Virus record (IMG/VR): IMGVR_UViG_3300048578_000420
Coordinates: 1 to 32,852 of that record
Origin: a virus
Taxonomy: Duplodnaviria; Caudoviricetes
DNA: 32,852 bases
Direction: 5' to 3' (one strand)
Part shown: one piece after another, positions 1,165 to 28,567 of the stretch
How positions within the stretch are numbered: the first letter of the stretch is position 1
How the letters are laid out: each line of letters begins with the position of its first letter
Notes under the pieces: model-generated
The model's input: the letters and a program-made list of their open reading frames with translations, nothing else
Database searches by the model: none
What the model was told of the DNA's origin: nothing
Program-made: the position numbers and the translations under genes

Positions 1165-3878
1165 ATTTTAATAAGCTCCGAATCTCCAAAAATCAGTTTG
1201 TTTTGACCAAAATCAAGGGTTTCTTCTATTTGCTTAACGATATAAGCATTGTCTTTTATTTTAAATAACCGAAGCCAATTACCTGAAGCGTATATTTCTT
1301 CAGTATAATCAATCTGAGATTTAATTGTTTTACCATGATTGATTTGCCAATCAATATACGCTTTCCACAATTTTTCATACAATCCATTTTCGCCTCCCAT
1401 TTCAATTGCAAATGGAACATTGTAATCAAATCCGGTAGGTGTTTTATCTGCGTAGTTGCTTTCAAATACTGAGTTTCTAAAACCTATAGCGCGGCAAAAT
1501 AACACCCCACTTTCTGGGCGTAGATCTTTCTCGTAAATACTAAATGTCCCCGGTTGCGAGATATATGGTAGATAAGCATCGATTGTTTCTTCTACAATTG
1601 AAAAGCTTACATTATAACAGCTGCCTAGCTGAATAGGAGTGTATTCATTTCTGTTTTTCATAATTATCCATCCGGCAAGATCTCCAACACCTGCCGTTAT
1701 TTCAAAATCTTTCAATTCTTTAGAGGCTTTTAATGCGTCTAAAATTGTCGATGATGTTTCGAATAGCCCTTGTGTATCAATGTCATATTCGTTTTGATAG
1801 ATGTCTGGAATAGCCGAGTATTTATATTTAACGGATGTGCCTCCAACTATTAATTCAAAACTAGATCCGACACTTCCACCTGACAGTACCTTTAATCGGG
1901 TTATTGTGTGACAAAATTGTAAAGGAACACCTGCGTCGCTTTCGATTGAAAGAACGTTGTTTTGCGCGCCTGTGTGCGATTTAATTGCTATGTAATTATA
2001 TGAGGCAAGTTTCCAATTGCCTAGGTTTGCCAAATAGTTCGACGAGTATTTATATAACGAATTATCCTTCACGCATTTATATAGAGCCTCATTGCTTATA
2101 TTATCGGATGGCGGATTATTCCCTTCTATTCCAATAACATAAGAATCAAGTTCTTTTATGTTTTTCGATAAATCGTTTTTCGTTCCTGTTAGACTCAATT
2201 TAAAAGAGTCGTAACCGTTTAATTGTGTTTCAGTTATAACGCCTGCTAATTCGCTTATGTCGATCGGAACTTGTGATAAAATGTAATTCCACGATTCGAG
2301 ATAAGCAGTGCGATTTTGAATATTCAGCGCTAAGGCAAAGGTGTTCTTTGTTGCTTTTAAAAACTCATTTACAGAAACATAAGGTAAATGCTTTGTTAAA
2401 TCAAATTCGAAAACATCGTTTACCTCACCTTTGAAAAATGGTTGAATAGGTACATGAAACACCTTGCATTTTTTAAACAATACATGAGTGGCGGGCATGG
2501 TAGGTAAACCGATTTTATACTCACACCTTATATTAGCTTCTTCTGATACTGCTGAAATAACTTTAATCGTTGCCCAATCATGATAATTCTCAATAAAATC
2601 ACCTTTTGTAAAGTCAAAATACTTTGAATAAGGCTTTTCGCGTACTGTTGCATCTGTATTTTTATTCAGCTCATAGGCAAGTTCACGCCTCAATATTCTA
2701 AAGCGTTTCTCATCAACAATCTGGTCTATAGTTGTTTCAATCAGGTTGTCAATGTATATCATCATGCCTGCAGTTAGTTTTGACGTGTCACTAACCGTAA
2801 TAAGCAAACTCGAATAACTCTTTAAATTATCTAACCAAGTTTGCCAATCACTGGCCGAAAGAATAAAATCTCCTGTGTAGTTTTTTACAAGAAAATCTTC
2901 ATAACCGCTTAAGTCAATGCCGTTTTCAAGTGTAATGCTTTCAATTTCAACACCGCAAACAATGTCTTTATCGATCGCTAAATTCTTTATTGAAAACTGG
3001 CCGTAATGTCTTAACGTACCTTCCTTTTTTGCCGACCGGGTTAAACCTGTTGCTTGAGTATTAATTTTTCGGCCATCGGCATCAATTGATACAAAGCAGT
3101 TATAAGGCATAGCAAGATCGCTACCAAAATAACCACCTGTTTGTTGGTACCGATAGCAAATAGTTGCTTTTGGTTCATCGCCTGCAGTAATAGAGACTAA
3201 CCAGGCATACCAATTATTATCCGGAACGCCAAAATATAACCACTTGGTATTTAGATTATTGTAAACCCAAATATCTTTTAAATTTGAGAGTGAGTTACTG
3301 GCTAGTGTTATTCCACTATTTTTAAAAAGCATTGCTAATGCTTTGTTTAACTTTAAAAAAGGAATAACAATAGGAGAATCTTTTGATTGATTTATTATTG
3401 AATAATCTATTCCGGCAATGTTGTCAAAATCGAGTCCGAGTTCTTTTCCAAAATTGGTTGTTTTACAAGGCGCAAAAATGAAAGGATATTTATCCGGATT
3501 AGTTAAGGTGTCGGCAATATCATTTTTGTTGAAACTAACGACTTCTGGCGATAAATCGGTGCATTTGGTCGCGTTTGCTAACGTATAAAAGTCAGTATTT
3601 TCGATAAATGAAAATTCAACTCCTTCTTCACTAACAGATGTAACGGTACATATTCCTTCATGATGTTTGAAACTTATTTCAATTATCATTTGAAATGATT
3701 TTCCGATCATATTGTAGCTCTCAGGTAAATGAATAAAACCAATTGCATCGGTAAGTTCATCGCAAAATGGAACTACAAAAGGGAAAGTCCATGTACTTTC
3801 ATCAACTACAGCCGTATTAACTTCTGTAAGTTGAATTATACCCGAAAATGGGATTTCTATATTGTTAATTTTTATCAT
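1161..3878 (-). CDS. Large minor tail / tail-tip protein (905 aa)
   Basis: Last gene of the tail operon. N-terminal TWTFPFVVP and C-terminal GENGLYEKLWKAYIDW...IVKQIE segments resemble Bacteroidota phage tail-tip proteins. Its stop overlaps the integrase stop. Confidence 0.6.
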   Translation of the reverse strand: MIKINNIEIPFSGIIQLTEVNTAVVDESTWTFPFVVPFCDELTDAIGFIHLPESYNMIGKSFQMIIEISFKHHEGICTVTSVSEEGVEFSFIENTDFYTLANATKCTDLSPEVVSFNKNDIADTLTNPDKYPFIFAPCKTTNFGKELGLDFDNIAGIDYSIINQSKDSPIVIPFLKLNKALAMLFKNSGITLASNSLSNLKDIWVYNNLNTKWLYFGVPDNNWYAWLVSITAGDEPKATICYRYQQTGGYFGSDLAMPYNCFVSIDADGRKINTQATGLTRSAKKEGTLRHYGQFSIKNLAIDKDIVCGVEIESITLENGIDLSGYEDFLVKNYTGDFILSASDWQTWLDNLKSYSSLLITVSDTSKLTAGMMIYIDNLIETTIDQIVDEKRFRILRRELAYELNKNTDATVREKPYSKYFDFTKGDFIENYHDWATIKVISAVSEEANIRCEYKIGLPTMPATHVLFKKCKVFHVPIQPFFKGEVNDVFEFDLTKHLPYVSVNEFLKATKNTFALALNIQNRTAYLESWNYILSQVPIDISELAGVITETQLNGYDSFKLSLTGTKNDLSKNIKELDSYVIGIEGNNPPSDNISNEALYKCVKDNSLYKYSSNYLANLGNWKLASYNYIAIKSHTGAQNNVLSIESDAGVPLQFCHTITRLKVLSGGSVGSSFELIVGGTSVKYKYSAIPDIYQNEYDIDTQGLFETSSTILDALKASKELKDFEITAGVGDLAGWIIMKNRNEYTPIQLGSCYNVSFSIVEETIDAYLPYISQPGTFSIYEKDLRPESGVLFCRAIGFRNSVFESNYADKTPTGFDYNVPFAIEMGGENGLYEKLWKAYIDWQINHGKTIKSQIDYTEEIYASGNWLRLFKIKDNAYIVKQIEETLDFGQNKLIFGDSELIKI

Positions 3879-5428
3879 GATAGATAATCGTCATTAAAGT
3901 CGTCGTCAAAATCACCGATGTCAATAGGAAGTAATGGTTGTGCCGCTACCATATAATCATCAGACTGAGCCAATTCAACTTCGAATTCGAGAAAAGGGAA
4001 ATCATCATCATCGGTTAAGATGTCGTAAGCTTTTGCGCTTACTTGTACCGGAGCTAATGTGCCGGATCTGATCCAATAGACTTCGCCAGAACGCAAAAAC
4101 TCTTGATATTCGATTGAGAGTGCAGCTTCTTCATAACCTGTGTTTATATTATACTTAATAGAGGCTGAATCACTTAACTGTCGAGTACTTGCATTTTGTT
4201 CGGTGAAATCATTCGGGAGCGAAACGCGAGATATTGATTTAACAACATCGAGAACTTGTTTTGCCTTTCCTGTTGTTCTTATAATATCGTAAGCTCCTAA
4301 TGAGTTACGATAAAGCCAATAGCGAGCAAATTGGTAGTAGTTGTAATCTATTTCGAAATGTCGTTTTTCTGATACGGCAATGCCAGCTTTCTCAATCCAA
4401 ACTTCGTAATCTCTTAATGCTGCATTATCATTTACTGTACGTACATCAGACCAAGCACAACATACTTCAATGGTTTGATAAGCTGCTGCCGAAATTGTAG
4501 CTAATTGCTCAATAACTGGCGCGGATCCATCAACATACCATTTTTGCACTTTAAGCACATAGGTGCCTGCACTTTGCGCAATGAAGTATAATTTTTGAGG
4601 CGAATAAATATCAGTTTGACGCGAGATATTGCGCCAGCTCAAGAACATTTTACTTGAATTAAGAACATCAGCAAAGCTTTTTGAAGCACTATTCATGCTT
4701 GCTAAACGTGTTTCGCTGAGCTTACCTGGTAAGCAATAAAATGTTGTCCCGGCAACATAGTCTTTTAAAACTGCAGGAATATTTTGTTGTAAAAAAACTT
4801 GAGGCGTGTACTTTTCTAAAATGCTGTGTAAAAACATTTTAGCCGTATTAGGAAAATTGTAAAATCCACGCCTTGACTTCGGTAATAATAGCGATACATT
4901 GAATGAGATCTCGCCAGTAAAACCATTCCCTGTTGCGCTTGGCAATGATTCAATAGGACCAATAAGTTTTGAACTTCCGTTTTTCTGCAAGCCTAATAAC
5001 CATCTGCTATTTTCTGCAATTTTTGGCATCCCGGAATAACTTTTATTGAATGTTAAAACGATATTGGTACAATCGCCTAATTCAATAGAAGGTATTTCGC
5101 CCGATCGGGTTGTGAGATAAATTGTATTGCCTGCTTTTGTTACGACAAAGTATCTAACGAGCACGGCCGTAACCGATAAGCAGGCAAATAAATCGGTTGA
5201 ATATTGACGATCGGTTAAAACAGGAGTAGCTGCGTATGTAAAGGTATATGTAACATCATTGATAATGAGATTAAACGACGATCCGGCACTAATACCCGAA
5301 GTTGGTGTAATAGATACCGATGATATTACGCCTGACGAAGAAAAGGCAGACGCATAACTAACTTTAATAACAGCATCGTTTCCTGAAGCTATTATTATTG
5401 GAACTTGTTTTATGATTGTTATTGCCAT
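3875..5428 (-). CDS. Minor tail / baseplate-like structural protein (517 aa)
   Basis: Beta-rich. Contains the motif WLYRNSLGAYDIIRTTG seen in Bacteroidota phage tail proteins. Acidic C-terminus GDFDDDFNDDY. Overlaps the next gene by 4 nt. Confidence 0.6.
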   Translation of the reverse strand: MAITIIKQVPIIIASGNDAVIKVSYASAFSSSGVISSVSITPTSGISAGSSFNLIINDVTYTFTYAATPVLTDRQYSTDLFACLSVTAVLVRYFVVTKAGNTIYLTTRSGEIPSIELGDCTNIVLTFNKSYSGMPKIAENSRWLLGLQKNGSSKLIGPIESLPSATGNGFTGEISFNVSLLLPKSRRGFYNFPNTAKMFLHSILEKYTPQVFLQQNIPAVLKDYVAGTTFYCLPGKLSETRLASMNSASKSFADVLNSSKMFLSWRNISRQTDIYSPQKLYFIAQSAGTYVLKVQKWYVDGSAPVIEQLATISAAAYQTIEVCCAWSDVRTVNDNAALRDYEVWIEKAGIAVSEKRHFEIDYNYYQFARYWLYRNSLGAYDIIRTTGKAKQVLDVVKSISRVSLPNDFTEQNASTRQLSDSASIKYNINTGYEEAALSIEYQEFLRSGEVYWIRSGTLAPVQVSAKAYDILTDDDDFPFLEFEVELAQSDDYMVAAQPLLPIDIGDFDDDFNDDYLS

Positions 5429-5439
5429 TTCTTAAATTT

Positions 5440-6726
5440 TTATACATAACTCTCATTGTTTTGATACGCACAACACGCAGGCGTTGTAAGGGCTGCCCAT
5501 TGCGCATCGGTATAGGTTGTTTGCGCGTTGATAACTGTGCCATTCCGGTACTTCAGCGATTTCCAACTCTGTTGCGTGAAAGTTTGTGAACCAATAGTTA
5601 CAATCGGATAAGCGTTTCCTTCAACGTCTGTTGGCGGTGTTGCGATATTCCAGTTTTTATTGCGTACAAAACGAACACTTCCCGAATAGTAGTAATCGTT
5701 CGCTCCATTGAGCGTAACATCTGTATAGCTATTAAGGATCGACATGTCATTGCTATAATTAGCCATGATGTCGGTTGCTGACCAAAAGTGAACCATTACG
5801 CCTAATTGCATAAATGCCCCGGCACTACCTCTATATCCTGCTCCAAGTGCTTTGAATCCGGATTCGGGAGTGAGTACCGTATTAACACCGCTCCAATGAA
5901 TCAGTCCCGGTTCTTTCAGCTTACCGCCCGCACTGTTGTAAGTGTTACTATCTACAAATGTACCCCCGGCATCGAGCGCCAATTGCGCTAATTCATCCTT
6001 TGTAGGCAAATGATATCCGGCAGGTGCAAGACTATATGAAGGAGCTAAATTGTACCATATACTTGCGCCTGTTGTAAGAGCTAAAAAAGAAGTAATAGAG
6101 GTGCTTAATGCAACTGTCGATCCATCTCTGTACTTCGATGTTTGAGCGTTTTCGGCTGTCCATACCTGTGTGCCGATTTTGACAGTCGGTAGCACATAGC
6201 CATCGTTTTCTACACAAAAACCTGTATCGTTTGAATCGTCCTTAATATATCTGACTCCCAACCCCCATTCGCGATTACCGTAAGTGTAATAAGTATAATT
6301 CGTATTTGGTTGAAAGTCCATATACCAAGCCTTTACACCATCGTAGTAGCTTGTCCATATCCCGGTATATTTTAAATCTGAAAATGCATCTGAACTAAAA
6401 AGCGATCCGGCAGCAAACACATTGAAACCAAATTCGTTAGTAGGTACAAGGTTTCCTCCATTACTTGTGTAAAATGAAGGTTCTCTCAATTTATATCCTA
6501 AATTTTCCCCACCAATAGCCGTAAGCAGTGCCGTTTTTTCTGCTTGAGTTGGGATATGCCAACCAACAGGTGCAAGTCCGCGTGCGTCGGCAACTGCATA
6601 GTAATTATACAGTCTACCTTTTGACCGTGCACGAGCAGCTAATACATTATACTGCCTTCCGTAAGTAAAAACAGGACCAGTAACGCGCTTTAAGTTGCGC
6701 GAATGAAAATCGAGCATCCTACTCAT
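5440..6726 (-). CDS. FISUMP (Fib_succ_major, C-type-lectin-like) domain protein, probable receptor-binding protein; two permuted domains
   Basis: Family motifs [32 protein letters not shown] and [13 protein letters not shown], then a second set [27 protein letters not shown] and [15 protein letters not shown]. Confidence 0.85.
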
Positions 6727-8830
6727 ATGCAGCTACGTTTACTTGTTTAATTGTACCGTCTACGTTCAAGAACGAAAACGTATTTGTTTTACCCGCTTCA
6801 ACTGCTGCAGTAGCAATTTTTTTCCAACCGGTTGGCATACTAACTGTAATGCCTGCGTTTACGGTTAGTATGAGCAAGCACGTATCTCCAACAGGTATAC
6901 CTGTTACTGTAAAATTCGTAATGTTGGCAGTCGCTGTAGCTATTATGATACCTCGATTTGTGAAATCGAACGTAGGTGTGCCGGATACATTTCCTTGAGC
7001 ATATGTTGCATATTTTTTAAAAAAATCAGTGTCTTTAAAGCCGTTAAGCAAATCGGCGTTAAGATTTGTAACAAGATTTGTATTAGCCATTGAGCCTCCT
7101 GTTTTTGGTAGTGCTTCGTTGGCTGTATCTTGAGCAGCTTTAATTAATGCCTCAGTATCTTCATATGCAACGATGTAATCTGTTGCTCTATTGCCACTTT
7201 CGAGCTTTAATTCAGAAATAGTTATGGTCTGACTTGAGTAAATTACAAAATGAGTCTGAGTATCGCGAGTGAAATTAACCTGCGCCGTGTAAATTAAATC
7301 CGTACCAGCGGGTAAGGTAGGCGTTAACTCAAAACTTCCATCAAAGCCTTCTATCGTGCCTAATGAAATTCCGATACTATTCCCGACCGAGCAAGTGTAT
7401 TTGAATTTTAAAATAAAACTACCAGTCACCATTTTATTTGAAATAGCCCAGATCATCCATCCTTCCCCATATCGCGACTTTGCTGTTCCAGTCCCTAAAA
7501 GCAAATTTCGCCCGCCTACTTGGATATTTTCGGCTGTGGCTTTTGCAGCATCGGCAGTAGTTTTAATGGCTGTAATTTGCGCCTGTAGCTTACCAAACGC
7601 TACAATAATTGAATCGGTTGCCGTTATTGCTAAATTACTTGCAAAAGATAAGCCTGAAAGTATTGTGTTAAGAACTCTACTCGTTGTGAAGTAAAGAAAA
7701 GAGGGGTCTTCTGTGACAGCAGCGGTAGAGCCGGGGCTCGCCGCTATATTCACGTATGTAGAGCCCGACCAACGATATATCTTGTCGGTAGCTAAATCGG
7801 TGTAAATTTTCCCCGATTCGCCAGTTGCCGGGAATGCCGATTTTGTAGCAAACTCAAGAACATCATCGACATACGAGGGTAGTAAGGTAGATGGAACCTT
7901 TCCTGTAGCATCGAGACCGGCATAGCCATTTGCAGTGTTTTTGTTAGCTACGTTTTCGGGGGTGTAACCAAGGTTGTCTTGCTTATTATTCTTAAGAAAT
8001 TGAAGTGAAGCATTTATCTTAGAAATGCCCTGAAGCAAGCTATCTGTTGGCAATGCTAATACAAATGACACTGCTGTATTTAATAACCCGGTAAGGAATC
8101 CTAAAACACCATCGGCACCAGTATCACCTTTTAATCCTTGAATACCTTGTATGCCTTGAGCGCCAGTTGCGCCTGTTGCTCCTTTTAATGAGCTTAAGAA
8201 ATTTGCAATTGTTCCGGAGTTTCCTGCTTCTAACCAGATTTGATATGCTGTTTTGCCATCGGCACCAGTATCACCTTTTACACCTTGAATACCTTGTATC
8301 CCTTGAGCTCCTGTTGCGCCAGTTGCGCCAATTGGACCTTGCGCACCTGTTGCGCCAATTTCACCTTTAAGTGAATTTAAAAAAACTAAAACAGAGCCAG
8401 AATTTCCTTGTTCTATCCAAAGCTGATATGCACTTTTACCATCAGCGCCAGTTGCACCAGTTGCACCAGTAAAGCCTTGTATCCCTTGTATGCCTTGTGC
8501 TCCTGTTGCACCAATTTCTCCTTGAGCTCCTGTTGCGCCTTTTTCGCCTTTTAACGAGTATAAGAAATCCGAAACTGATCCAGTATTACCTTGATCTAAC
8601 CAAACTTGATATGCACTTTTGCCATCAGGACCAGGTGTTAATTCTATTTCTGATAATTTTATATCAATATCTTTTGCTGTATAAAACAGTCCGAGAGCAG
8701 ATACTACGAATGAGGTAATGTTTCGTAAAACACCATTTAATATAATACCAGTGATATTACGCGCATTGTTCTTTTTTATCTTTTCGTCAATATTGCTTAA
8801 TACATTATCATGCAGTGTGTTAAGATCCAT
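6719..8830 (-). CDS. Collagen-like tail fibre protein (703 aa)
   Basis: Gly-X-Y runs alternate with three GKSAYQxW..GNxG..FLxSLKG units. Also has the fibre modules [31 protein letters not shown] and NLNADLLNG. Confidence 0.85.
8115..8630 (-). repeat. Intragenic collagen (GXY) and three-fold GKSAYQ-unit repeats
   Basis: Repeated gcgccagtt/gcaccagtt/ccttgtat 9-mers and three 'gatatgc(a/t)(c/g)tttt(g/a)ccatc' units in the DNA. Boundaries approximate. Confidence 0.85.
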
Positions 8831-13358: not shown

Positions 13359-14765
13359 TTAAGAGATTACGGCACCGCCTGCCACCTTTTGCGAGCCTTT
13401 TCCGGCATCTAACGTAGTAAGTTCAGTATCTACTATTTCAAAGCTTACTTCGGCAGGCCATTTGTTTATCACTTTTATAACTTCAAGAGGTTGCAATATA
13501 AGATCTCGATAAGCCTTCAACATAGCTTGTTTCATTATAAAGAGCTCACGTGCTTCGGTGCCGTTAATACTTTTAGTTGCACCAGGAGCGGCACCATTTA
13601 ACGAAGGATGTACATTTTGCGCATAGCAAAGCATGCTGTTTGCAATGTTGGTATCCTCGGTAAATTCACCGCCTTTCATTGTGTTTTCGAGAGTCGTGAT
13701 TTTAATGCGAGGATGTTCAGTGCCTTTTAAGTCAACAAAAAAAGTACTGAATACGGCTTTGCCTGTGTTTTCTGTTCCGGTTAACGTTTCCAGAATCATA
13801 TCATATTCGCGCTGTATTCGTTCTTTCTTCAATTCAGGATCAACGATGTTTTCACTTTTAAAAAGGTCTTCAAAGTATTTAGCATCAATTTCAATGATGT
13901 ATTTAAGCGTCATTTGATTGTTCATTAACGCTTTTTTAAATTCAGGAATAGCAACAGCCAAATCGTACCAGCCGCTTAAAAACACAGAGTACCATGGTGA
14001 TTCTGGATAATAGGCACGAGCGCCAATGGAAGGAAAATAGATTGGAATGATATAACTATATTTTTTTTCATCAACCTTTTTCCCTTTAATGTCGGGTTCA
14101 CGGCCTATTCTTCGCTGAAGATCTAACGAAGCGTTGAACGATTTAAGCATTGGAGTTCCTGAGCAATATTTTTTTTCCACAGATCCTTTATACCATTTAG
14201 CAGAATAGAAATGCATCTCTATGTCACCGTTGGCATTCATCGGACTAACTCTTGAAAACATTGCCTCTTTGTGATGTATTTCAAGTACTTTGCGCGATTC
14301 AGGAGCTTCCATATTTAGAACAAGCTCACAATATGAATGATGATAAGTATGTACATCAACACATTGTTCAAGGAGATAAAGCGGTATGTTATTGTTTTTT
14401 ATAAAAGCTTCAATTTCGGAGTATTCGCCAGGGGCAACATCTACTTTTTTTGTTTTCTTCGTTGTCGGATCCTGAATTGTTTTCATCAACTTTAATCCTC
14501 CGCCATAGGTCATGTAAGCATTAAACATGATATTAGCCGATAGCGTTTCGCTGACTTTTATTTTAGATTGAAGCTCATTTGGTTTTTTATTGTTTTTGCC
14601 CCAAGCTACAAATTGATGCTGTTCTTTATCTTCTGATATTTCAATATTATCAGGCGTTTCTTTATCGGCATCGGCAACAACTTCAGCATTTGCTTTAATG
14701 ATGAAGGCTGCCTGTTTGCCTGAGCAGTATGCAAGCCCATCAGAGGTAATCATTTGAATATTCAT
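13359..14765 (-). CDS. Portal protein
   Basis: 468 aa with WGKNNKKP, YYPESPWYS, GTENTGK, VHPSLNG and GTEARELF...RDLILQPL motifs typical of Bacteroidota phage portals. Confidence 0.8.
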   Translation of the reverse strand: MNIQMITSDGLAYCSGKQAAFIIKANAEVVADADKETPDNIEISEDKEQHQFVAWGKNNKKPNELQSKIKVSETLSANIMFNAYMTYGGGLKLMKTIQDPTTKKTKKVDVAPGEYSEIEAFIKNNNIPLYLLEQCVDVHTYHHSYCELVLNMEAPESRKVLEIHHKEAMFSRVSPMNANGDIEMHFYSAKWYKGSVEKKYCSGTPMLKSFNASLDLQRRIGREPDIKGKKVDEKKYSYIIPIYFPSIGARAYYPESPWYSVFLSGWYDLAVAIPEFKKALMNNQMTLKYIIEIDAKYFEDLFKSENIVDPELKKERIQREYDMILETLTGTENTGKAVFSTFFVDLKGTEHPRIKITTLENTMKGGEFTEDTNIANSMLCYAQNVHPSLNGAAPGATKSINGTEARELFIMKQAMLKAYRDLILQPLEVIKVINKWPAEVSFEIVDTELTTLDAGKGSQKVAGGAVIS

Positions 14766-14998
14766 ACAAATACCTCCTCTCCGTTGAAATTTATAATAGT
14801 CGATGTTCGTATTGTGCGAATTTCGCCGCCAGGAAGCTTGATGTCCATTGTCCTGTTAGGCTTATATTCATTTTGAAATATGCAAGATTGAATATTTACA
14901 ATCTCGCCCGATTCTTTAACAAACTCAAGCGAAAACGGCACGTATTCGCCTTTGACTTGCCGTTGTGCAACTAAATAAATTCGTGAACTGTGCAGCAT
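14762..14998 (-). CDS. Small conserved-looking phage protein upstream of the portal
   Basis: 78 aa, beta-rich (FSLEFVKESGEI...GEIRTIR...FNGEEV). ATGA overlap with the portal. Confidence 0.6.
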   Translation of the reverse strand: MLHSSRIYLVAQRQVKGEYVPFSLEFVKESGEIVNIQSCIFQNEYKPNRTMDIKLPGGEIRTIRTSTIINFNGEEVFV

Positions 14999-15016
14999 AA
15001 GAGGTTTCTTTTACTG

Positions 15017-15050
15017 CTAAGTTATTAAGCGAGGATAGGAGGTAGGGGAC
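15017..15050 (-). promoter_or_regulatory. Putative late promoter copy B (portal operon)
   Basis: GTCCC-N21-TAACTTAG. Shares TTTGTCCCCTACC with copy A. Confidence 0.65.
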
Positions 15051-15086
15051 AAAAGAAAAGCCTAGCTAATGCCAGGCTTTCTTTTT
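15051..15086 (-). terminator. Intrinsic terminator closing the accessory island
   Basis: AAAGCCTAGC-TAAT-GCCAGGCTTT flanked by A/T runs. Confidence 0.7.
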
Positions 15087-15104
15087 GTATTCAGCGAAAT
15101 AGTT

Positions 15105-15395
15105 TTATTCCGGAACATCTTTCGATTTTCCGTTTTGAAAACTTCGCCATTTGGCAATAAAATCGGCGAGTTGCCCCATCATCTTTGCCAGTTCCAGATC
15201 CGTTTTTTTGTTCAGCTCAATTTTATCAACTGTTATAAAGTGTTCATCGGTAATGTCTATCTCAGACTCTTTTATTTTAGCAACAAAAAGAGGGTGTTGT
15301 GTATGACTTATAAAATCATACGCAACACCTTCGTGCATTACTCGTCGCGCTATAAATCGAGGACATAAAGGTTTTTCGGGTGAAAAGTTGCTCAT
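15105..15395 (-). CDS. Hypothetical protein (96 aa), accessory island
   Basis: ORF lies between a hairpin and a terminator. No function recognised. Confidence 0.6.
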   Translation of the reverse strand: MSNFSPEKPLCPRFIARRVMHEGVAYDFISHTQHPLFVAKIKESEIDITDEHFITVDKIELNKKTDLELAKMMGQLADFIAKWRSFQNGKSKDVPE

Positions 15396-15409
15396 GGTTA
15401 TAATGATAA

Positions 15410-15429
15410 AGCCCCGATTGCTCGGGGCT
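15410..15429 (-). terminator. GC-rich hairpin / possible terminator
   Basis: AGCCCCGA-TTGC-TCGGGGCT. Confidence 0.55.
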
Positions 15430-15437
15430 AGTTAAAT

Positions 15438-15839
15438 TTATTTTTTAAAATAATTGAAATGAGATACTGCATTTTCAACATCTGATTTTAAAACTCCTTT
15501 TAAATTCATTTTGTTGATTAACAGCAATTTTTGTTCGAATTTAACAGCGTAATCTGCAGCTATCTGTTTACTGCGATCATCACTATTATGGATAAAATCG
15601 CTCATTGAGTGTGCATAGCTGTTTAATAAACGGACTTCGTCTTTGATGAAATCACATATTGCCTTATATGTTTTTTTGCTAATAGTGTAAGACACACCTG
15701 CACCGCCATTTTGATAATCGAAATGAATTGAACAAAATGCATTTCTAACTTCGTTTTTTTCAAAAGAAGAAACTGTAAAAGAAGTCATTCTTTCGTTTGC
15801 AATAAATTCTTTAGCTGTCTCAATTGATATTGTTTTCAT
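15438..15839 (-). CDS. Hypothetical protein (133 aa, start MKTISI), first gene behind repeat copy 1
   Basis: The ATG lies at the end of the duplicated promoter/leader. Confidence 0.7.
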   Translation of the reverse strand: MKTISIETAKEFIANERMTSFTVSSFEKNEVRNAFCSIHFDYQNGGAGVSYTISKKTYKAICDFIKDEVRLLNSYAHSMSDFIHNSDDRSKQIAADYAVKFEQKLLLINKMNLKGVLKSDVENAVSHFNYFKK

Positions 15840-15980
15840 AATCTTAATTTTTTTTGCCTTTATCAAACCGTAAAGGCTTCGGTGTATTGAAGTATTTCAA
15901 TAGCTCAAAGATACGCTAAAGCGTATTACCTTGCAAGCTTTAAATGTTAAATTTTACGCTAAAACGTATTTTTAACATTT
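15833..15980 (-). repeat. 148-bp direct repeat copy 1: promoter, operators and leader
   Basis: 5 mismatches against 16741..16888 by manual alignment. Contains CTTG-N20-TATCTTTG and several palindromes. Confidence 0.95.
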
Positions 15981-16436
15981 AGCGATAATGAAATTAATTA
16001 TTTTCTCAATATTATCGGCTGTCATCGACTTTTTATCGGTGATGAAATCGCTGATAGTTGCCTGCCGAATGCCTACTCCTTCAGCTATTTTTTGCTGTGT
16101 AACGTTGTTGTACTTGGCTGCAAAAAGTTGCTGGTCCAGAATTTTTTTTAACGAAACTTCGCCTTTTTTCGCGACAATAGAAAAAGCAAAATCGGCTAAC
16201 GAATTAGACGCTATTCCGTAGCGATTTACAAACTGATCTTCAAACCCTGGTTCCTTCATTTCTTCGGGTTGTTCTACCTGCTCGGCTTGAGCCAAAGCTG
16301 TACGAGATACTAAATCGTAACAGAAATTTAGCACATTCAGTAATTCTGTTTGATTGTCGGTTATGTTGCCAAAATCGCGCTCTGCTTCGAGTAGTGCGAT
16401 TTCTGTTGAAATGTTGTCGAGTGCTTGCATATCCAT
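15972..16436 (-). CDS. Protein with acidic N-terminal domain and C-terminal XRE/Cro-type HTH
   Basis: VTQQKIAEGVGIRQATISDFITDKKSMTADNIEKI matches the HTH_XRE pattern. Confidence 0.8.
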   Translation of the reverse strand: MDMQALDNISTEIALLEAERDFGNITDNQTELLNVLNFCYDLVSRTALAQAEQVEQPEEMKEPGFEDQFVNRYGIASNSLADFAFSIVAKKGEVSLKKILDQQLFAAKYNNVTQQKIAEGVGIRQATISDFITDKKSMTADNIEKIINFIIAKC

Positions 16437-16471
16437 TTGCCCGTCATGCCGATAGCGCAGCGTTTATTATT

Positions 16472-16747
16472 TTAGAAATTATTGTAATCAAAATTTTCAA
16501 CGTCGTAATCGAAATTATTACGCCACATATTTTGACAATCTTCAATTAACTTTTTATGTAATAAGCGACCGTCATGCATGAAGTCTGTACTTTCAATGTC
16601 TTCAATTTCTTCATCAGTAATAAATGAATATAAACTAAATTCATTGTTTTCTAGTTCGTTAATCATGTGATCTGCAATATTACCAGATATGAACTCACGA
16701 TTGTCATTAACGATTTGTTTTGCGATTTGTAATGCTGAATTTTTCAT
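16472..16747 (-). CDS. Small highly acidic protein (91 aa, start MKNSAL), first gene behind repeat copy 2
   Basis: Asp/Glu/Asn- and aromatic-rich (ITDEEIEDIESTDF, FDYDVENFDY). Confidence 0.7.
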   Translation of the reverse strand: MKNSALQIAKQIVNDNREFISGNIADHMINELENNEFSLYSFITDEEIEDIESTDFMHDGRLLHKKLIEDCQNMWRNNFDYDVENFDYNNF

Positions 16748-16888
16748 GATCTTATTTTTTTTTGCCTCTATCAAACCGTAAAGGCTTCGGTGTATTGAAC
16801 TGTTTCAATAGCTCAAAGATACGCTAAAGCGTATTACCTTGCAAGCTTTAAATGTTAAATTTTACGCTAAAACGTATTTTTAACATTT
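16741..16888 (-). repeat. 148-bp direct repeat copy 2: promoter, operators and leader
   Basis: Near-identical to 15833..15980. Confidence 0.95.
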
Positions 16889-17040
16889 GGAGCTAAAAAT
16901 CTTTCGAAACATGAATAGTTATAGAATGTTTAAGAAATAATAAACAGATGTAAATTATTGGTGTCTTAGGATTAGACACAACCGAGGAACGAGGCAGGAA
17001 TGTAATGACTGTATAATTTACTCCTTTTTAAGCGCGCCAA

Positions 17041-17062
17041 AAGCCTCTAATACAAGAGGCTT
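17041..17062 (-). terminator. Hairpin/terminator after the SymE-like gene
   Basis: AAGCCTCT-AATACA-AGAGGCTT. Confidence 0.55.
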
Positions 17063-17068
17063 AAAGCT

Positions 17069-17305
17069 TTATTCAAGTTCAAAACCAAATTTCTCAATTA
17101 GGTTTGTAAGAGCTGGGTTTTTAATCTGCATACGCTGCAAAACGTCAACCTTTGTAATTACTATACATTCGGGAGCGGTTAAAATCTGAACTTCATCGTT
17201 TATGTTAAAATTCAATTCGGTTAAATATTTGCCCGCTATTCTTACGCCTGGTACGTATTGTTTGCCCTGTGGCGTTTTAACAACATGTTGCGTTTTGGCG
17301 CTCAT
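17069..17305 (-). CDS. SymE-like (AbrB-fold) protein
   Basis: PGVRIAGKYLTELNFNINDEVQI...IVIT resembles the SymE pattern PxLxLxGxWLxxxGFxxGxxVxV. Confidence 0.6.
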   Translation of the reverse strand: MSAKTQHVVKTPQGKQYVPGVRIAGKYLTELNFNINDEVQILTAPECIVITKVDVLQRMQIKNPALTNLIEKFGFELE

Positions 17306-17652
17306 TTGTTGTTTTTAAAAGGTTCTACTTGCTTGTTGCTGAATAAATAGCACAACGGATAAAAGCTAAATTCGTCATCGTTCTGTTTTTCTTTATGCTC
17401 CGTTTTTTGTGCCTTCATTGGCGCTCCCCAAATGACAAAGGCGTGTTCTCCTTTTTTTACTTTAAAGCCCTTTTCTCGCCATTGAAAAAACGTGTTAAAC
17501 TCGGTGTTTTCGGGTGTTGTATAACACTCACGGATAACGTAATCGTTTACGTTTTGGTACCCTCCGTTAACTTTAATTGCTTGCTTTGCGACTTTAGAGA
17601 GCTGCTTTAATTTGTCGCGATTTTCTTGATATTTAGATTCTTGATTTTTCAT
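17302..17652 (-). CDS. Stand-alone ArdC-like N-terminal ssDNA-binding domain protein
   Basis: FNTFFQWREKGFKVKKGEHAFVIW...YLFSNKQVE matches the ArdC/DUF1738 motif TFxQWxxxGxxVxKGE...FxxxQ. No metalloprotease domain. Confidence 0.75.
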   Translation of the reverse strand: MKNQESKYQENRDKLKQLSKVAKQAIKVNGGYQNVNDYVIRECYTTPENTEFNTFFQWREKGFKVKKGEHAFVIWGAPMKAQKTEHKEKQNDDEFSFYPLCYLFSNKQVEPFKNNK

Positions 17653-17741
17653 ATCTTTGTAAAAGTTTCGAAATCCAATTTTGAAACGGTTAAGGAATCC
17701 CCAAAGCAGGTGCGAAACGAAGCTTTGGGGATTTGTTGTTT

Positions 17742-18167
17742 TTAATCCTCTAGCAATTCAGCTTCTAGGCTTGTTATTTTATCGCCTATCTCCTTATCAA
17801 TGAAATTGCAAAACCGTTGCAAAACAAAACTTGAAGAAACACTTACTACATTGTCATTTCTGTAACGACCTGCAGAAAGAACTAAACGAGCGTTTTCATT
17901 ATTGAAATCGTCTTTTTCCTCCTTCTTTGCTTCTGCTGCAAAACTTTTGATTTTCTCGCGTGTCTCAATGAAATTAACACGCTGTTGCGCTAACGTTGAT
18001 TTTCTATTTAAACGGTTGAGTTCCGCTTGAAGCTTTTCGCGTAAAATATCAATTTCTGATTTTTCTTTTACGTCTTTAGGCAGGGTTATTACTTTGCCTT
18101 TAGCTTCGTCTTTGGGTGTTGTTGCCCCATTAGCAACCTGAGCGGCTGCAGTTTCTTTTTTTTCCAT
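17742..18167 (-). CDS. Hypothetical helical/coiled-coil protein (141 aa), first gene of the accessory island
   Basis: Clean ORF, charged and helical. No function recognised. Confidence 0.7.
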   Translation of the reverse strand: MEKKETAAAQVANGATTPKDEAKGKVITLPKDVKEKSEIDILREKLQAELNRLNRKSTLAQQRVNFIETREKIKSFAAEAKKEEKDDFNNENARLVLSAGRYRNDNVVSVSSSFVLQRFCNFIDKEIGDKITSLEAELLED

Positions 18168-18446
18168 TTTGATAAAACAGTTAAGGTTATTAATTCAGAA
18201 ATAAAGAGGGTGCGAATCCCTTTAAATCATACGTAAATATAGTAAATATCAGCGAGTTAACCAAAAAAACACAGTGCTATTTTACATGTTTTCGAACAAA
18301 AAACGCATTATTTTTTTGTGTATCAGGTTTTTAAATGAGGTCAAGGGGAAATTATTTCCCTTTGTCTGCGAGTTGACCCCGCCCCCGCCCTGTCCTGAGA
18401 GTGTAGCTACACTCTTTTTTTCCTATTGTTATATGAAATGGGGTAC

Positions 18447-18474
18447 AAAAAAAGCCCCTCGAAAATCGAGAGGC
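18447..18474 (-). terminator. Intrinsic terminator of the terminase operon
   Basis: Minus strand GCCTCTCGA-TTT-TCGAGGGGC followed by T7. Confidence 0.75.
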
Positions 18475-18514
18475 CTCTCTATAGCGGATCGCCTGTGCGA
18501 TACCTCTTTTGATA

Positions 18515-20134
18515 CTAATACGTTGACAAAGGGATGAAGTATGAGCTCGCAGGATACTTATTGGCACCTACCCACAAAGTATCCCAGGCATCAGTGATAT
18601 GTGTCTTTGTTTCATCAGGCTTTTCGGGTGTGTCTTCTTCTTTCTCTGCACTCTTATCTTTTTGAAATCCATTTCTATCTATCTTAACACCAGTTGTTTG
18701 CATGGCTAGTAATAGATATTCGTTGTTGTGCTTGTTGAATGTCGGGAATAAATATTCTGGATCTCCTGCTAATGACTTGTTAATGATCTCATGCTTAACA
18801 TCATGGCGCATTGGGTTGCCTATATACTTCATGTCAACATTAAATCCGAATGTTGTAAGAACCTTCTTTACTGTCTCACAAAACGAATCTTCCTCTTGAG
18901 CGTCTTCAGCAATAGCAGTACTATCATAGTAATATATCACATCTCTATTAGGGAAGTGCAAGTAATACTTACAGAACGATTCGCATACATCTTTAAGTTT
19001 CTTAGGAGTCTTGACAAAGAAGCTGTTAACTGTCCTTAATTCACGTCCTACTGTTTGCCCTACTACCATTGTGTTAATGGCTGCATTGTAGTCATTTGCA
19101 ATCATTAATGGCTTATCTGGCATAAGATCACCATCCCATTGGCAATCCTGTTCTTTACTTCGTGCTAAGTCGTAATCAAGTGATTCTAAATAAGATATAT
19201 TACTATTAGGTTCGTAATAGTGAATAGACTCATTAAGTGAAGAATAAAAGCCGTTTGCTACTTTCTTTAATCGGTGGTTTAATACTGAGGTTCTGAATAT
19301 TAACGGCGGCAATGTTCTCTTTAGGTTGGCAAAGTATTTCTCGCCTAATTTCTCGGCATTCTCAAATGCGTCAAATTCTTCGTAGTATATAGCATTTGAC
19401 CTGAATAATTGAAGATCTTCTTCTAATGACCTTATTTTCTCAGTGAAATATAAGCTACCTGTTGAACGCTCATTTAGTTCATATATCTCATTGTAAGTTG
19501 CTTTAATGCAGGATATAAGTTCTTTGTCCATCATTTCCTCATATTTAAGGATCCAAGATCCTTCTTGAGTGGTTGGCATATCAGTAGAGTAATGTTCTGA
19601 ATGATGCCAAGGGCAATCAAACAATCCTTCATTACCACGATTGGCTTGCTTTACTTCATTTGTTAGTTTTGTATGATTGATAAATTTAGCTTCAAAGCCC
19701 ATAATCCAGTCAAGCGACATAGAGTTAGCCGACATTCCACGCTCAAATGATAAGAAATTTACAATAGTACCATTAAACCAGTACATGCAACCACTGTAAT
19801 CAAACGGTTCAGTGTAAGGCTTTGCATAGTTTAGCTTTTTATCGGGTTTCTTCCCAATCACATAATGAATGTCGCGATGATAGCCTAAACGCGACAATCC
19901 GGCGCATACTGCAGGCAAAGTGTTTTTAAGGAGCTTCGTGTAACTGGGGGTAACTAAGCCGCCCATCGAGCGCGGCATACTGAATACATTCCTTAGCAAA
20001 ATATTACAATCAATGCCTTCGCTCTTCCCAATACCACGCGCGCCTACAATTGTGCTTATGTTAGCGTTTATAATAAAACAAGGCATTATCTGTGCCTTGT
20101 TAAACCATATCTTATTGACTTCTGAGCTATTCAT
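18515..20134 (-). CDS. terL: Terminase large subunit
   Basis: Walker A GARGIGKS near the N-terminus. C-terminal RNase H-like acidic motifs ANDYN, YYDST and HITDAWD. 539 aa. Confidence 0.85.
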   Translation of the reverse strand: MNSSEVNKIWFNKAQIMPCFIINANISTIVGARGIGKSEGIDCNILLRNVFSMPRSMGGLVTPSYTKLLKNTLPAVCAGLSRLGYHRDIHYVIGKKPDKKLNYAKPYTEPFDYSGCMYWFNGTIVNFLSFERGMSANSMSLDWIMGFEAKFINHTKLTNEVKQANRGNEGLFDCPWHHSEHYSTDMPTTQEGSWILKYEEMMDKELISCIKATYNEIYELNERSTGSLYFTEKIRSLEEDLQLFRSNAIYYEEFDAFENAEKLGEKYFANLKRTLPPLIFRTSVLNHRLKKVANGFYSSLNESIHYYEPNSNISYLESLDYDLARSKEQDCQWDGDLMPDKPLMIANDYNAAINTMVVGQTVGRELRTVNSFFVKTPKKLKDVCESFCKYYLHFPNRDVIYYYDSTAIAEDAQEEDSFCETVKKVLTTFGFNVDMKYIGNPMRHDVKHEIINKSLAGDPEYLFPTFNKHNNEYLLLAMQTTGVKIDRNGFQKDKSAEKEEDTPEKPDETKTHITDAWDTLWVGANKYPASSYFIPLSTY

Positions 20135-28520: not shown

Positions 28521-28567
28521 CAAAAAGAGAGAGCGACCGGAATACCTCCGATCGCTCTCTCTTTTTG
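28521..28567. terminator. Long bidirectional terminator hairpin
   Basis: CAAAAAGAGAGAGCGA-C-CGG...CCG-A-TCGCTCTCTCTTTTTG. Confidence 0.8.

Follow-up and report, generated by a model that had tools for sequence, protein, structure and literature searches.

In acr-aca operons (Aca1, Aca2 and Aca10-Aca14), the gene of a helix-turn-helix (HTH) protein follows a small cargo gene, one palindrome lies over the promoter and a second upstream of it, and a hairpin forms behind the start site. PMC13551039 describes control of neighbouring operons by Aca proteins via the promoter palindrome and leader hairpin, including the prediction that one regulator controls a neighbouring operon. The PeSL cassettes of T4-type phages illustrate another design, in which genes are shuffled at repeated promoter-stem-loop units, about 50 copies in all, that end at the start codon before ORFans (PMC2839356). 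The Acr-HTH fusions AcrIF24 and AcrIIA15 have a self-repressing HTH joined to a second domain. In Cluster K mycobacteriophages, the Start-Associated Sequence (SAS) is a short, oriented, phage-specific motif located a few bases ahead of the start codons of unrelated non-structural genes (PMC3203893).

We analysed a stretch of 32,852 nucleotides, the window, which is a provirus record in IMG/VR (IMGVR_UViG_3300048578_000420), about 63% complete and carrying integrase, tail, lysis and head genes. It contains a unit that shares the acr-aca features listed above: an HTH protein is encoded behind a small cargo gene in one predicted operon, and an inverted repeat overlaps the promoter. It differs from acr-aca operons in that it has no known acr gene, its two-domain regulator does not match the solved Aca proteins, its promoter is of Bacteroidota type, and a whole unit of 148 bp is duplicated; the main text of PMC13551039 does not contain the strings "Bacteroid", "duplicat" or "recombination". 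With PeSL cassettes it has in common the repeated promoter and stem-loop ending at a start codon and the replacement of a gene at the repeat, here in one sister strain. PeSL units, as PMC2839356 describes them, differ from the window, a temperate phage of Bacteroidales type with two copies, operators and a dedicated putative repressor. Instead of a sigma-70-type promoter in a T4-type phage, we found TTG/TAnnTTTG boxes in an integrase-bearing provirus. In the way it would work, the unit resembles both an acr-aca locus and a PeSL pair, a likeness of design that we do not extend to membership of either group. It would combine Aca-type autoregulation, as predicted here, with PeSL-type shuffling.

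Those homologs of the HTH protein that carry a taxon name were recovered from Prolixibacteraceae bins, which makes a Bacteroidales host likely. The unit sits among small minus-strand ORFs in an interval (13359..20134, minus strand) framed by a likely terminase large subunit (18515-20134), which has no family match and was assigned by its gene order and an ATPase-like motif, and a likely portal (13359-14765; weak PHROG match, E 7e-4). All features of this interval given below are on the minus strand. Upstream of the unit are accessory genes (17069..18167) that comprise a 141-aa ORF, a protein with an ArdC N-terminal domain (17302-17652; ArdcN, E 6e-6) and a SymE-like ORF (17069-17305) with a SymE score below the family cut-off. 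Downstream are a terminator-like hairpin (15410-15429), a 96-aa ORF to which no family was assigned (15105-15395) and a second terminator-like hairpin (15056-15081) that closes the cassette ahead of the structural genes. A likeness by eye between the 96-aa ORF and a 112-aa ORF of L012 was dropped when tblastn gave no match. A search with the portal found three distant relatives, and the only one covering the interval, L031, has other small ORFs there and lacks the repeat. Elsewhere in the window, the tail region (5440-8830) has two copies of a gene with a Fib_succ_major domain and a fibre gene with collagen repeats, and a 21-bp inverted repeat, 95% complementary, lies downstream of a 173-aa gene (28521-28567) and is likely a strong terminator.

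The first-pass annotation had described a duplicated promoter/operator, and the duplication was borne out. Copy 1 (15833..15980) and copy 2 (16741..16888), each of 148 bp, differ at five positions (15840/16748, 15847/16755, 15860/16768, 15892/16800 and 15894/16802), and their identity stops right behind ATGAAAA, as had been claimed. Apart from the collagen-like tail gene, this pair is the only long two-copy repeat of the window. The copies have the same parts, and copy 1 in addition contains the stop codon of the HTH gene (15972-15974), again as annotated. The promoter, TTG-N20-TATCTTTG, was found in both copies, in agreement with the earlier claim, at 15906-15936 in copy 1 and 16814-16844 in copy 2, and the minus strand of the window has no further site of this kind; its assignment to the Bacteroidota type is based on what we take to be the -33/-7 consensus of that phylum. 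The annotated palindrome over the -7 box and its near-copy upstream are present in both repeats: the operator over the -7 box occupies 15911-15926 in copy 1 and 16819-16834 in copy 2, and the upstream operator 15955-15968 and 16863-16876, respectively. When up to three mismatches were allowed, the palindrome pattern matched eight times in the window against 1.46 expected, a number reached in 0 of 100 shuffles. Exact TACG-N6-CGTA occurs at four sites only, one pair in each repeat copy, with 43 bp between the members of a pair.

Between promoter and start codon lies a leader with two hairpins per copy (15885-15902 and 15856-15877 in copy 1; 16793-16810 and 16764-16785 in copy 2) and a folding energy of about -11.7 kcal/mol (z -2.1 and -2.6). 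The loop of the 5' hairpin contains two of the five differences, as the annotation stated. In the second hairpin, found in the present analysis, the 15860/16768 difference turns a U-A pair into U-G, so that pairing is kept, and two further differences lie in the A-rich stretch ahead of the ATG. All five thus belong to the leader, where they leave both hairpins intact, and the 86 bp with promoter and operators have none. These observations support the interpretation of the repeat as a putative promoter/operator/leader unit. An origin of the leader from a CRISPR repeat was also considered, as a solitary CRISPR repeat acting as an RNA anti-CRISPR. This candidate was rejected at the sensitivity used: with up to three mismatches, a leader 23-mer gave single matches in 4 of 301 genomes of the order and in none of three genomes of a smaller set, and no array.

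The gene located between cargo 1 and copy 1 (15972..16430) encodes a protein of 152 amino acids, or 154 if counted from the ATG at 16436. The start at 16430 is likely the correct one: the sister strain described below lacks the ATG at 16436 (16435 A>C), and P0001 starts at the second Met. The protein consists of an N-terminal domain of about 90 amino acids and a C-terminal XRE HTH with the recognition helix GIRQATISDF. Pfam HTH_3 matched above the cut-off (E 4e-5), and XRE fold matches cover residues 91-153. The N-terminal domain is unclassified and acidic (17 D+E, 5 K+R); in an alignment of 28 of the 29 homologs found (A1, the 90-aa P0027 being excluded) it is better conserved than the HTH, and it occurs without the HTH in P0027, L012, L013 and L020. 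A wider family search gave 219 matches, among which 55 clusters reached E 1e-10 or better. Searches with the structural model of the regulator (pLDDT 87.6, pTM 0.56) returned the XRE HTH and, for residues 1-53, generic helical hairpins only (best Z 7.7). Among solved structures, the family profile matched HipB best (E 2.6e-5), in the HTH part only, and matched Aca11 (E 0.28) and the HTH of AcrIIA15 (E 0.039) more weakly. Like AcrIF24 and AcrIIA15, the regulator joins a second domain to an HTH for which self-repression is predicted; its second domain does not resemble theirs, and the weak score against AcrIIA15 given above comes from the HTH alone.

The first-pass annotation had proposed Aca-like repression of the duplicated promoter by this protein. 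One part of that claim gained support, since operator and recognition helix were found together in unrelated phages; binding itself is a prediction. The search with A1 gave 22 loci, many of which are duplicates or end before the promoter, and six distinct fused loci retain the promoter region. L011, L027 and L028 have exact TACG-N6-CGTA over the -7 box and helices of the form R-x-A-T-[IL]-S, and L014 combines such a helix with a one-base operator variant at the same place. In L009, a different helix is paired with a different palindrome, TAGT-N6-ACTA. L018 is the exception, with near-matching operators and a different helix (GVSVSSLSEY). The reverse approach started from the DNA. L004, from an unrelated phage selected in this way, carries the two operators at a distance of 44 bp, together with an unfused HTH whose helix is GVRKATISDF. 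The operator-promoter pattern gave 20 loci, which became 17 after removal of one duplicate and two sister-contig loci and, because eight belong to one family, ten groups by our own grouping. In three of the ten groups an HTH with the same helix was found within 2.5 kb (42-59 bits). In the remaining seven, some of which are likely chance matches or cut-short sequences, there was no such HTH within that distance. None of 245 control loci (232 kb) had a match of at least 12 bits, an imperfect contrast since the controls are mostly stretches of 820 bp; for this reason, the co-occurrence is taken as support and not as proof. In L289 the operator-promoter is present twice (39 identical bp, 1712 bp apart), each time before a different ORF, which indicates that the two-copy design recurs. 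This recognition helix is carried by only 15 of 57 close family representatives, and other members therefore likely read other operators. Taken together, it is highly probable that the HTH protein represses both promoters, its own included.

Several arrangements were observed around these loci. In L004, two promoters share one outline but differ in their palindromes (2940-3021 and 3760-3840), and each is followed by its own HTH gene, a pair that corresponds to two parallel autoregulated units in the portal-terminase interval. L292, L297, L299, L300, L301, L303, L306 and L307 belong to one family with TACG-N6-CGTA over a promoter before variable genes, and no regulator of this helix type lies within 2.5 kb of them. 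Closely similar 100-aa acidic ORFs precede the regulator in L009 (5637-5939) and L027 (3582-3884), the helices and operators of which differ. L009 also has, in the terminase-portal interval, three copies of another repeat of about 250 bp (4240-4470, 4670-5030 and 6500-6800), each before a small ORF.

Repeats of this length can be mis-joined, and an assembly artefact had been named as one outcome that would undo the annotation. The 148-mer was also to be searched for other cargo genes behind it. In IMG/VR this search found one further record only, the near-identical contig L008, which has the same repeat pair, differs by a 38-bp gap elsewhere and is no independent witness, as it may come from the same population. 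The missing 38 bp correspond to window positions 15005-15042, just upstream of a 78-aa pre-portal gene. Run X1 holds a diverged sister strain with the layout repeat-cargo-HTH-repeat and 35 differences in the 524 bases of the HTH gene. A first contig of this run spans 15104-15890. A 120-bp contig corresponds to a single repeat core with two changes absent from both window copies. A contig of 1079 bp starts with the repeat 3' end, continues with 497 other letters and then with 16474-15951, and another contig extends from the repeat upstream into other DNA. The simplest reading of these contigs is that the sister has a two-copy layout in which the 91-aa gene would have been replaced between ATGAAAA and its stop and the copies homogenised. 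Contig order was derived from 30-letter overlaps in a single run, and deletion, circle and tandem forms are consequently indistinguishable; the same applies to a linear two-copy layout and a circle of the kind known as PeSL mini-circles. Depth in this run was 29.1 for the unit against 20.6 and 21 for the flanks, values that are not taken as copy number. Runs X3, X16 and X14 had no long piece across the unit (X16 and X14 had no contig at all), and no RNA dataset is among the listed holders of the sequence.

A sister strain with the same layout and a different 497-bp insert argues that the repeat is not an assembly artefact. With five differences between the copies and intact ORFs behind both, we consider a mis-joined repeat extremely unlikely. 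The duplication could also be a recent and neutral by-product of recombination, with the HTH protein regulating something else. The 97% identity of the copies and the restriction of the repeat in IMG/VR to the window and its near-identical contig agree with such an origin. However, the sister retains two copies despite the divergence of its HTH gene, with the shared core changed in both, all differences in the window spare the motifs, and its exact operators are confined to the repeats, so that a neutral origin is very improbable. The exchange of genes at the repeat, which the first-pass annotation had envisaged, is supported by the one sister strain, and exchange of cargo at the boundaries formed by ATGAAAA and the 23-nt element described next is very probable from the contigs compared.

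The loose contig ends in the sister comparison led to region 16435-16466, and thus to a conserved intergenic element of 23 nt (16439..16461) between cargo 1 and the HTH gene. It is present in one copy in the window and had been overlooked in the first-pass annotation. It is predicted to form an H-type pseudoknot, in which positions 1-4 pair with 11-14 and 6-8 with 21-23. Other small pseudoknots near the start codons of accessory genes include RAGATH motifs. A 20-mer from the element was found in 121 IMG/VR stretches, and 120 of 124 matches had enough flank to define 87 distinct contexts, the first class. In these, three further bases are invariant and an ATG lies 6-8 nt downstream in 70. The flanking ORFs form 27 downstream and 30 upstream groups, numbers that are overcounted owing to partial sequences, and nine and six of these groups, respectively, have two or more partners. 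A variant class adds some 230 stretches by the estimate of the tool; its 114 contexts have 69 downstream groups among 96 ORFs. An ATG at 6-8 nt is found in only five of them, and many have an AG-rich run resembling a ribosome site before the ATG, from which we infer hosts outside Bacteroidota. A role as a substitute for the Shine-Dalgarno sequence was rejected, as it fits the spacing of the first class and not that of the variant class. Variants of the element also stand before the regulator homologs of L009 and L014, and others were seen in Bacteroides phage BU2-1 and in a record with the name Methanosarcina virus MetMV. The element was absent from the 151 host genomes searched. Five phage records have one to six copies. 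There are three tandem copies with a 33-bp period in L243 (401-489), and six copies on both strands among small ORFs in G308:C1:53500-62523 (L400).

To follow stem 1, contexts were collected with position 14 forced away from C. Among the 72 obtained, 45 have AT-rich flanks, and in 42 of these positions 1 and 14 can pair (C-G in 31, G-U in six, A-U in three and U-A in two). The shuffle mean was 26.8 and none of 10000 shuffles reached 42, with related phages inflating the counts. In the 27 GC-flanked contexts, mostly chance matches, the pair is possible in nine. In stem 2, G6-C23 becomes C6-G23 in five contexts. L399 has both C6-G23 and C8-G21, the last two bases having been predicted before they were seen, and the stem is broken in two contexts (L061 and L224). 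Covariation thus shows the pairing in both stems of the predicted knot. Its nearest-neighbour fold is not stable (z +1.1) under an energy model that leaves out pseudoknots. The invariant 3' hexamer (16439-16444) may complement the decoding-site region of 16S rRNA, a six-base match that could easily arise by chance, and three of its bases pair within the predicted knot. No Rfam family matches the element; DUF805b (RF02914) gave three matches of at most 8.2 bits, none of them at the element, against a cut-off of 35.6. A full-text literature search for the letters of the motif did not find it, nor did searches of the supplementary files covered for PMC10690425 and of the covered passages of bioRxiv 10.64898/2026.09.22.753630. 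With SAS the element shares its shortness, its orientation, its restriction to phages and its place a few bases before the starts of unrelated non-structural genes. SAS contains a Shine-Dalgarno core (PMC3203893), whereas the 23-nt element lacks one, covaries as a pseudoknot and is often upstream of a separate Shine-Dalgarno-like run.

Two genes follow the repeats. Cargo 1 (16472..16747), which matched no known family and is replaced by the 497 letters in the sister, encodes 91 amino acids and is acidic as annotated (20 D+E, 7 K+R). It has one homolog, with 47% identity, and weakly resembles the N-terminus of a 285-aa protein preceding the HTH homolog of L018. Its membership of an acidic family of L014 was rejected, since a profile built without L014 misses it. 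Cargo 2 (15438..15839) encodes a near-neutral protein of 133 amino acids (16 D+E, 19 K+R) with no homolog beyond its own 90% cluster, in which the sole relative is identical at 130 of 133 positions. Neither ORF matched Pfam, PHROG or PADLOC families. A single-sequence model of the 133-aa protein (pLDDT 78) had no fold match in the PDB or a viral library at E 0.001, and the Atlas models of both proteins gave no usable or nameable fold match.

The first-pass annotation had nominated these ORFs as anti-CRISPR candidates and the acidic one as a possible DNA mimic, proposals that are so far unsupported: there is no family or nameable fold match, and the HTH protein does not match a solved Aca family. 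With no match of the cargo to a known Acr, "acr-aca" holds as a description of the architecture only. The HTH protein had been proposed as a guilt-by-association marker. The gene preceding the regulator differs from phage to phage, in genomes that are themselves laid out differently, and is often small and acidic. No Acr family was found in the ORFs of the window or in 30 neighbour proteins scanned with Pfam, the libraries covering few Acrs of Bacteroidota. The regulator neighbourhoods contain ArdC in L018, L027 and L028 (full-length and upstream of the regulator homolog in L018 and L028), RadC/JAB in L027 and recurrent SymE-like genes. Type IV Cas genes are located downstream of regulator homologs, namely Cas8 in L018 and L028, Cas11 in L028 and Cas7 in L026. 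They occupy L018:3482-4299, L026:1313-3709 and L028:3536-4994, and L026 also has a gene with a PAPS-reductase domain.

The ArdC and type IV Cas neighbours suggest cargo of a general anti-defence kind. Anti-defence is the likeliest role of the cargo, with an even chance of being correct, and anti-CRISPR activity is one option among such roles and a doubtful one when taken by itself. A true acr-aca locus would imply that the 91-aa protein, perhaps together with the acidic N-terminal domain of the regulator, inhibits the host CRISPR-Cas. The small acidic cargo, the occurrence of that domain without an HTH and its conservation, which exceeds that of the HTH, point in this direction, as does a layout that fits the acr-aca1 operons of PMC13551039 (promoter palindrome, upstream palindrome and hairpin). 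On the other hand, cargo and domain resemble no known Acr in sequence or fold and the known neighbours are genes of anti-restriction type and type IV Cas genes rather than acr genes, which makes such a locus rather unlikely. We assign a similarly low probability to an autoregulated early or lysogenic cargo with no relation to defence, serving takeover, superinfection exclusion or a toxin-antitoxin-like function with a HipB-type repressor. HipB is indeed the best solved match of the regulator, a SymE-like ORF lies upstream, and the cargo has no defence-related match. However, the HipB similarity is limited to 45 residues of a generic XRE domain, and neither a HipA-like gene nor any other constant partner accompanies the regulator, the gene before which varies by phage.

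The reading that we favour, and consider probable, is that of an exchangeable accessory cassette of a Bacteroidales-type prophage, in which a duplicated, predicted early promoter is likely silenced by the HTH protein encoded between its copies and the cargo is likely anti-defence. Transcription of cargo 1 and the regulator would start in copy 2, and that of cargo 2 in copy 1. Both promoters would fire before the regulator accumulates; the regulator would then bind the paired TACG-N6-CGTA sites, as their co-occurrence with its helix suggests, one of each pair covering the -7 box. Cargo 1 would be a replaceable module between ATGAAAA and the 23-nt element, judging from the one sister strain, and homologous recombination is the likely route of exchange. 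The element itself may act at the mRNA level, most likely by safeguarding expression of the gene behind it, either through re-initiation past the preceding stop codon or by blocking 5'-to-3' decay, and its conservation would also make it a joint for gene exchange. Of the autoregulated burst module proposed in the first-pass annotation, the promoter/operator/leader unit, the likely repressor and cargo exchange are retained, and an anti-CRISPR or DNA-mimic cargo is so far unsupported. A more ambitious version is only tentatively put forward: a knot shared by phages of at least two bacterial phyla that safeguards expression of the following gene in early accessory operons and serves as a universal exchange joint, a duplicated and self-repressed promoter, and a new two-domain Aca-like family with an anti-defence N-terminal effector.

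In the literature searched, no description was found of this regulator family, of its operator or of the 23-nt knot, and markers of Aca type for phages of Bacteroidota are scarce there. The exact module boundaries in the sister strain make the mechanism of exchange testable. The knot, a predicted RNA fold of very small size whose pairs covary, has no counterpart in Rfam and is located ahead of dozens of gene families that are unrelated to one another. In the sister the first slot holds a different gene, and this slot ends at a predicted knot common to hundreds of phage sequences, so that the cassette likely serves as a plug-in platform for genes with a possible role in disarming host defences. 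Each of the three, regulator family, operator and 23-nt element, leads to sets of small uncharacterised genes on which screens for anti-CRISPR or anti-restriction activity can be run and, if the more ambitious version is true, they would be independent baits for hundreds of undiscovered anti-defence genes of Bacteroidota.
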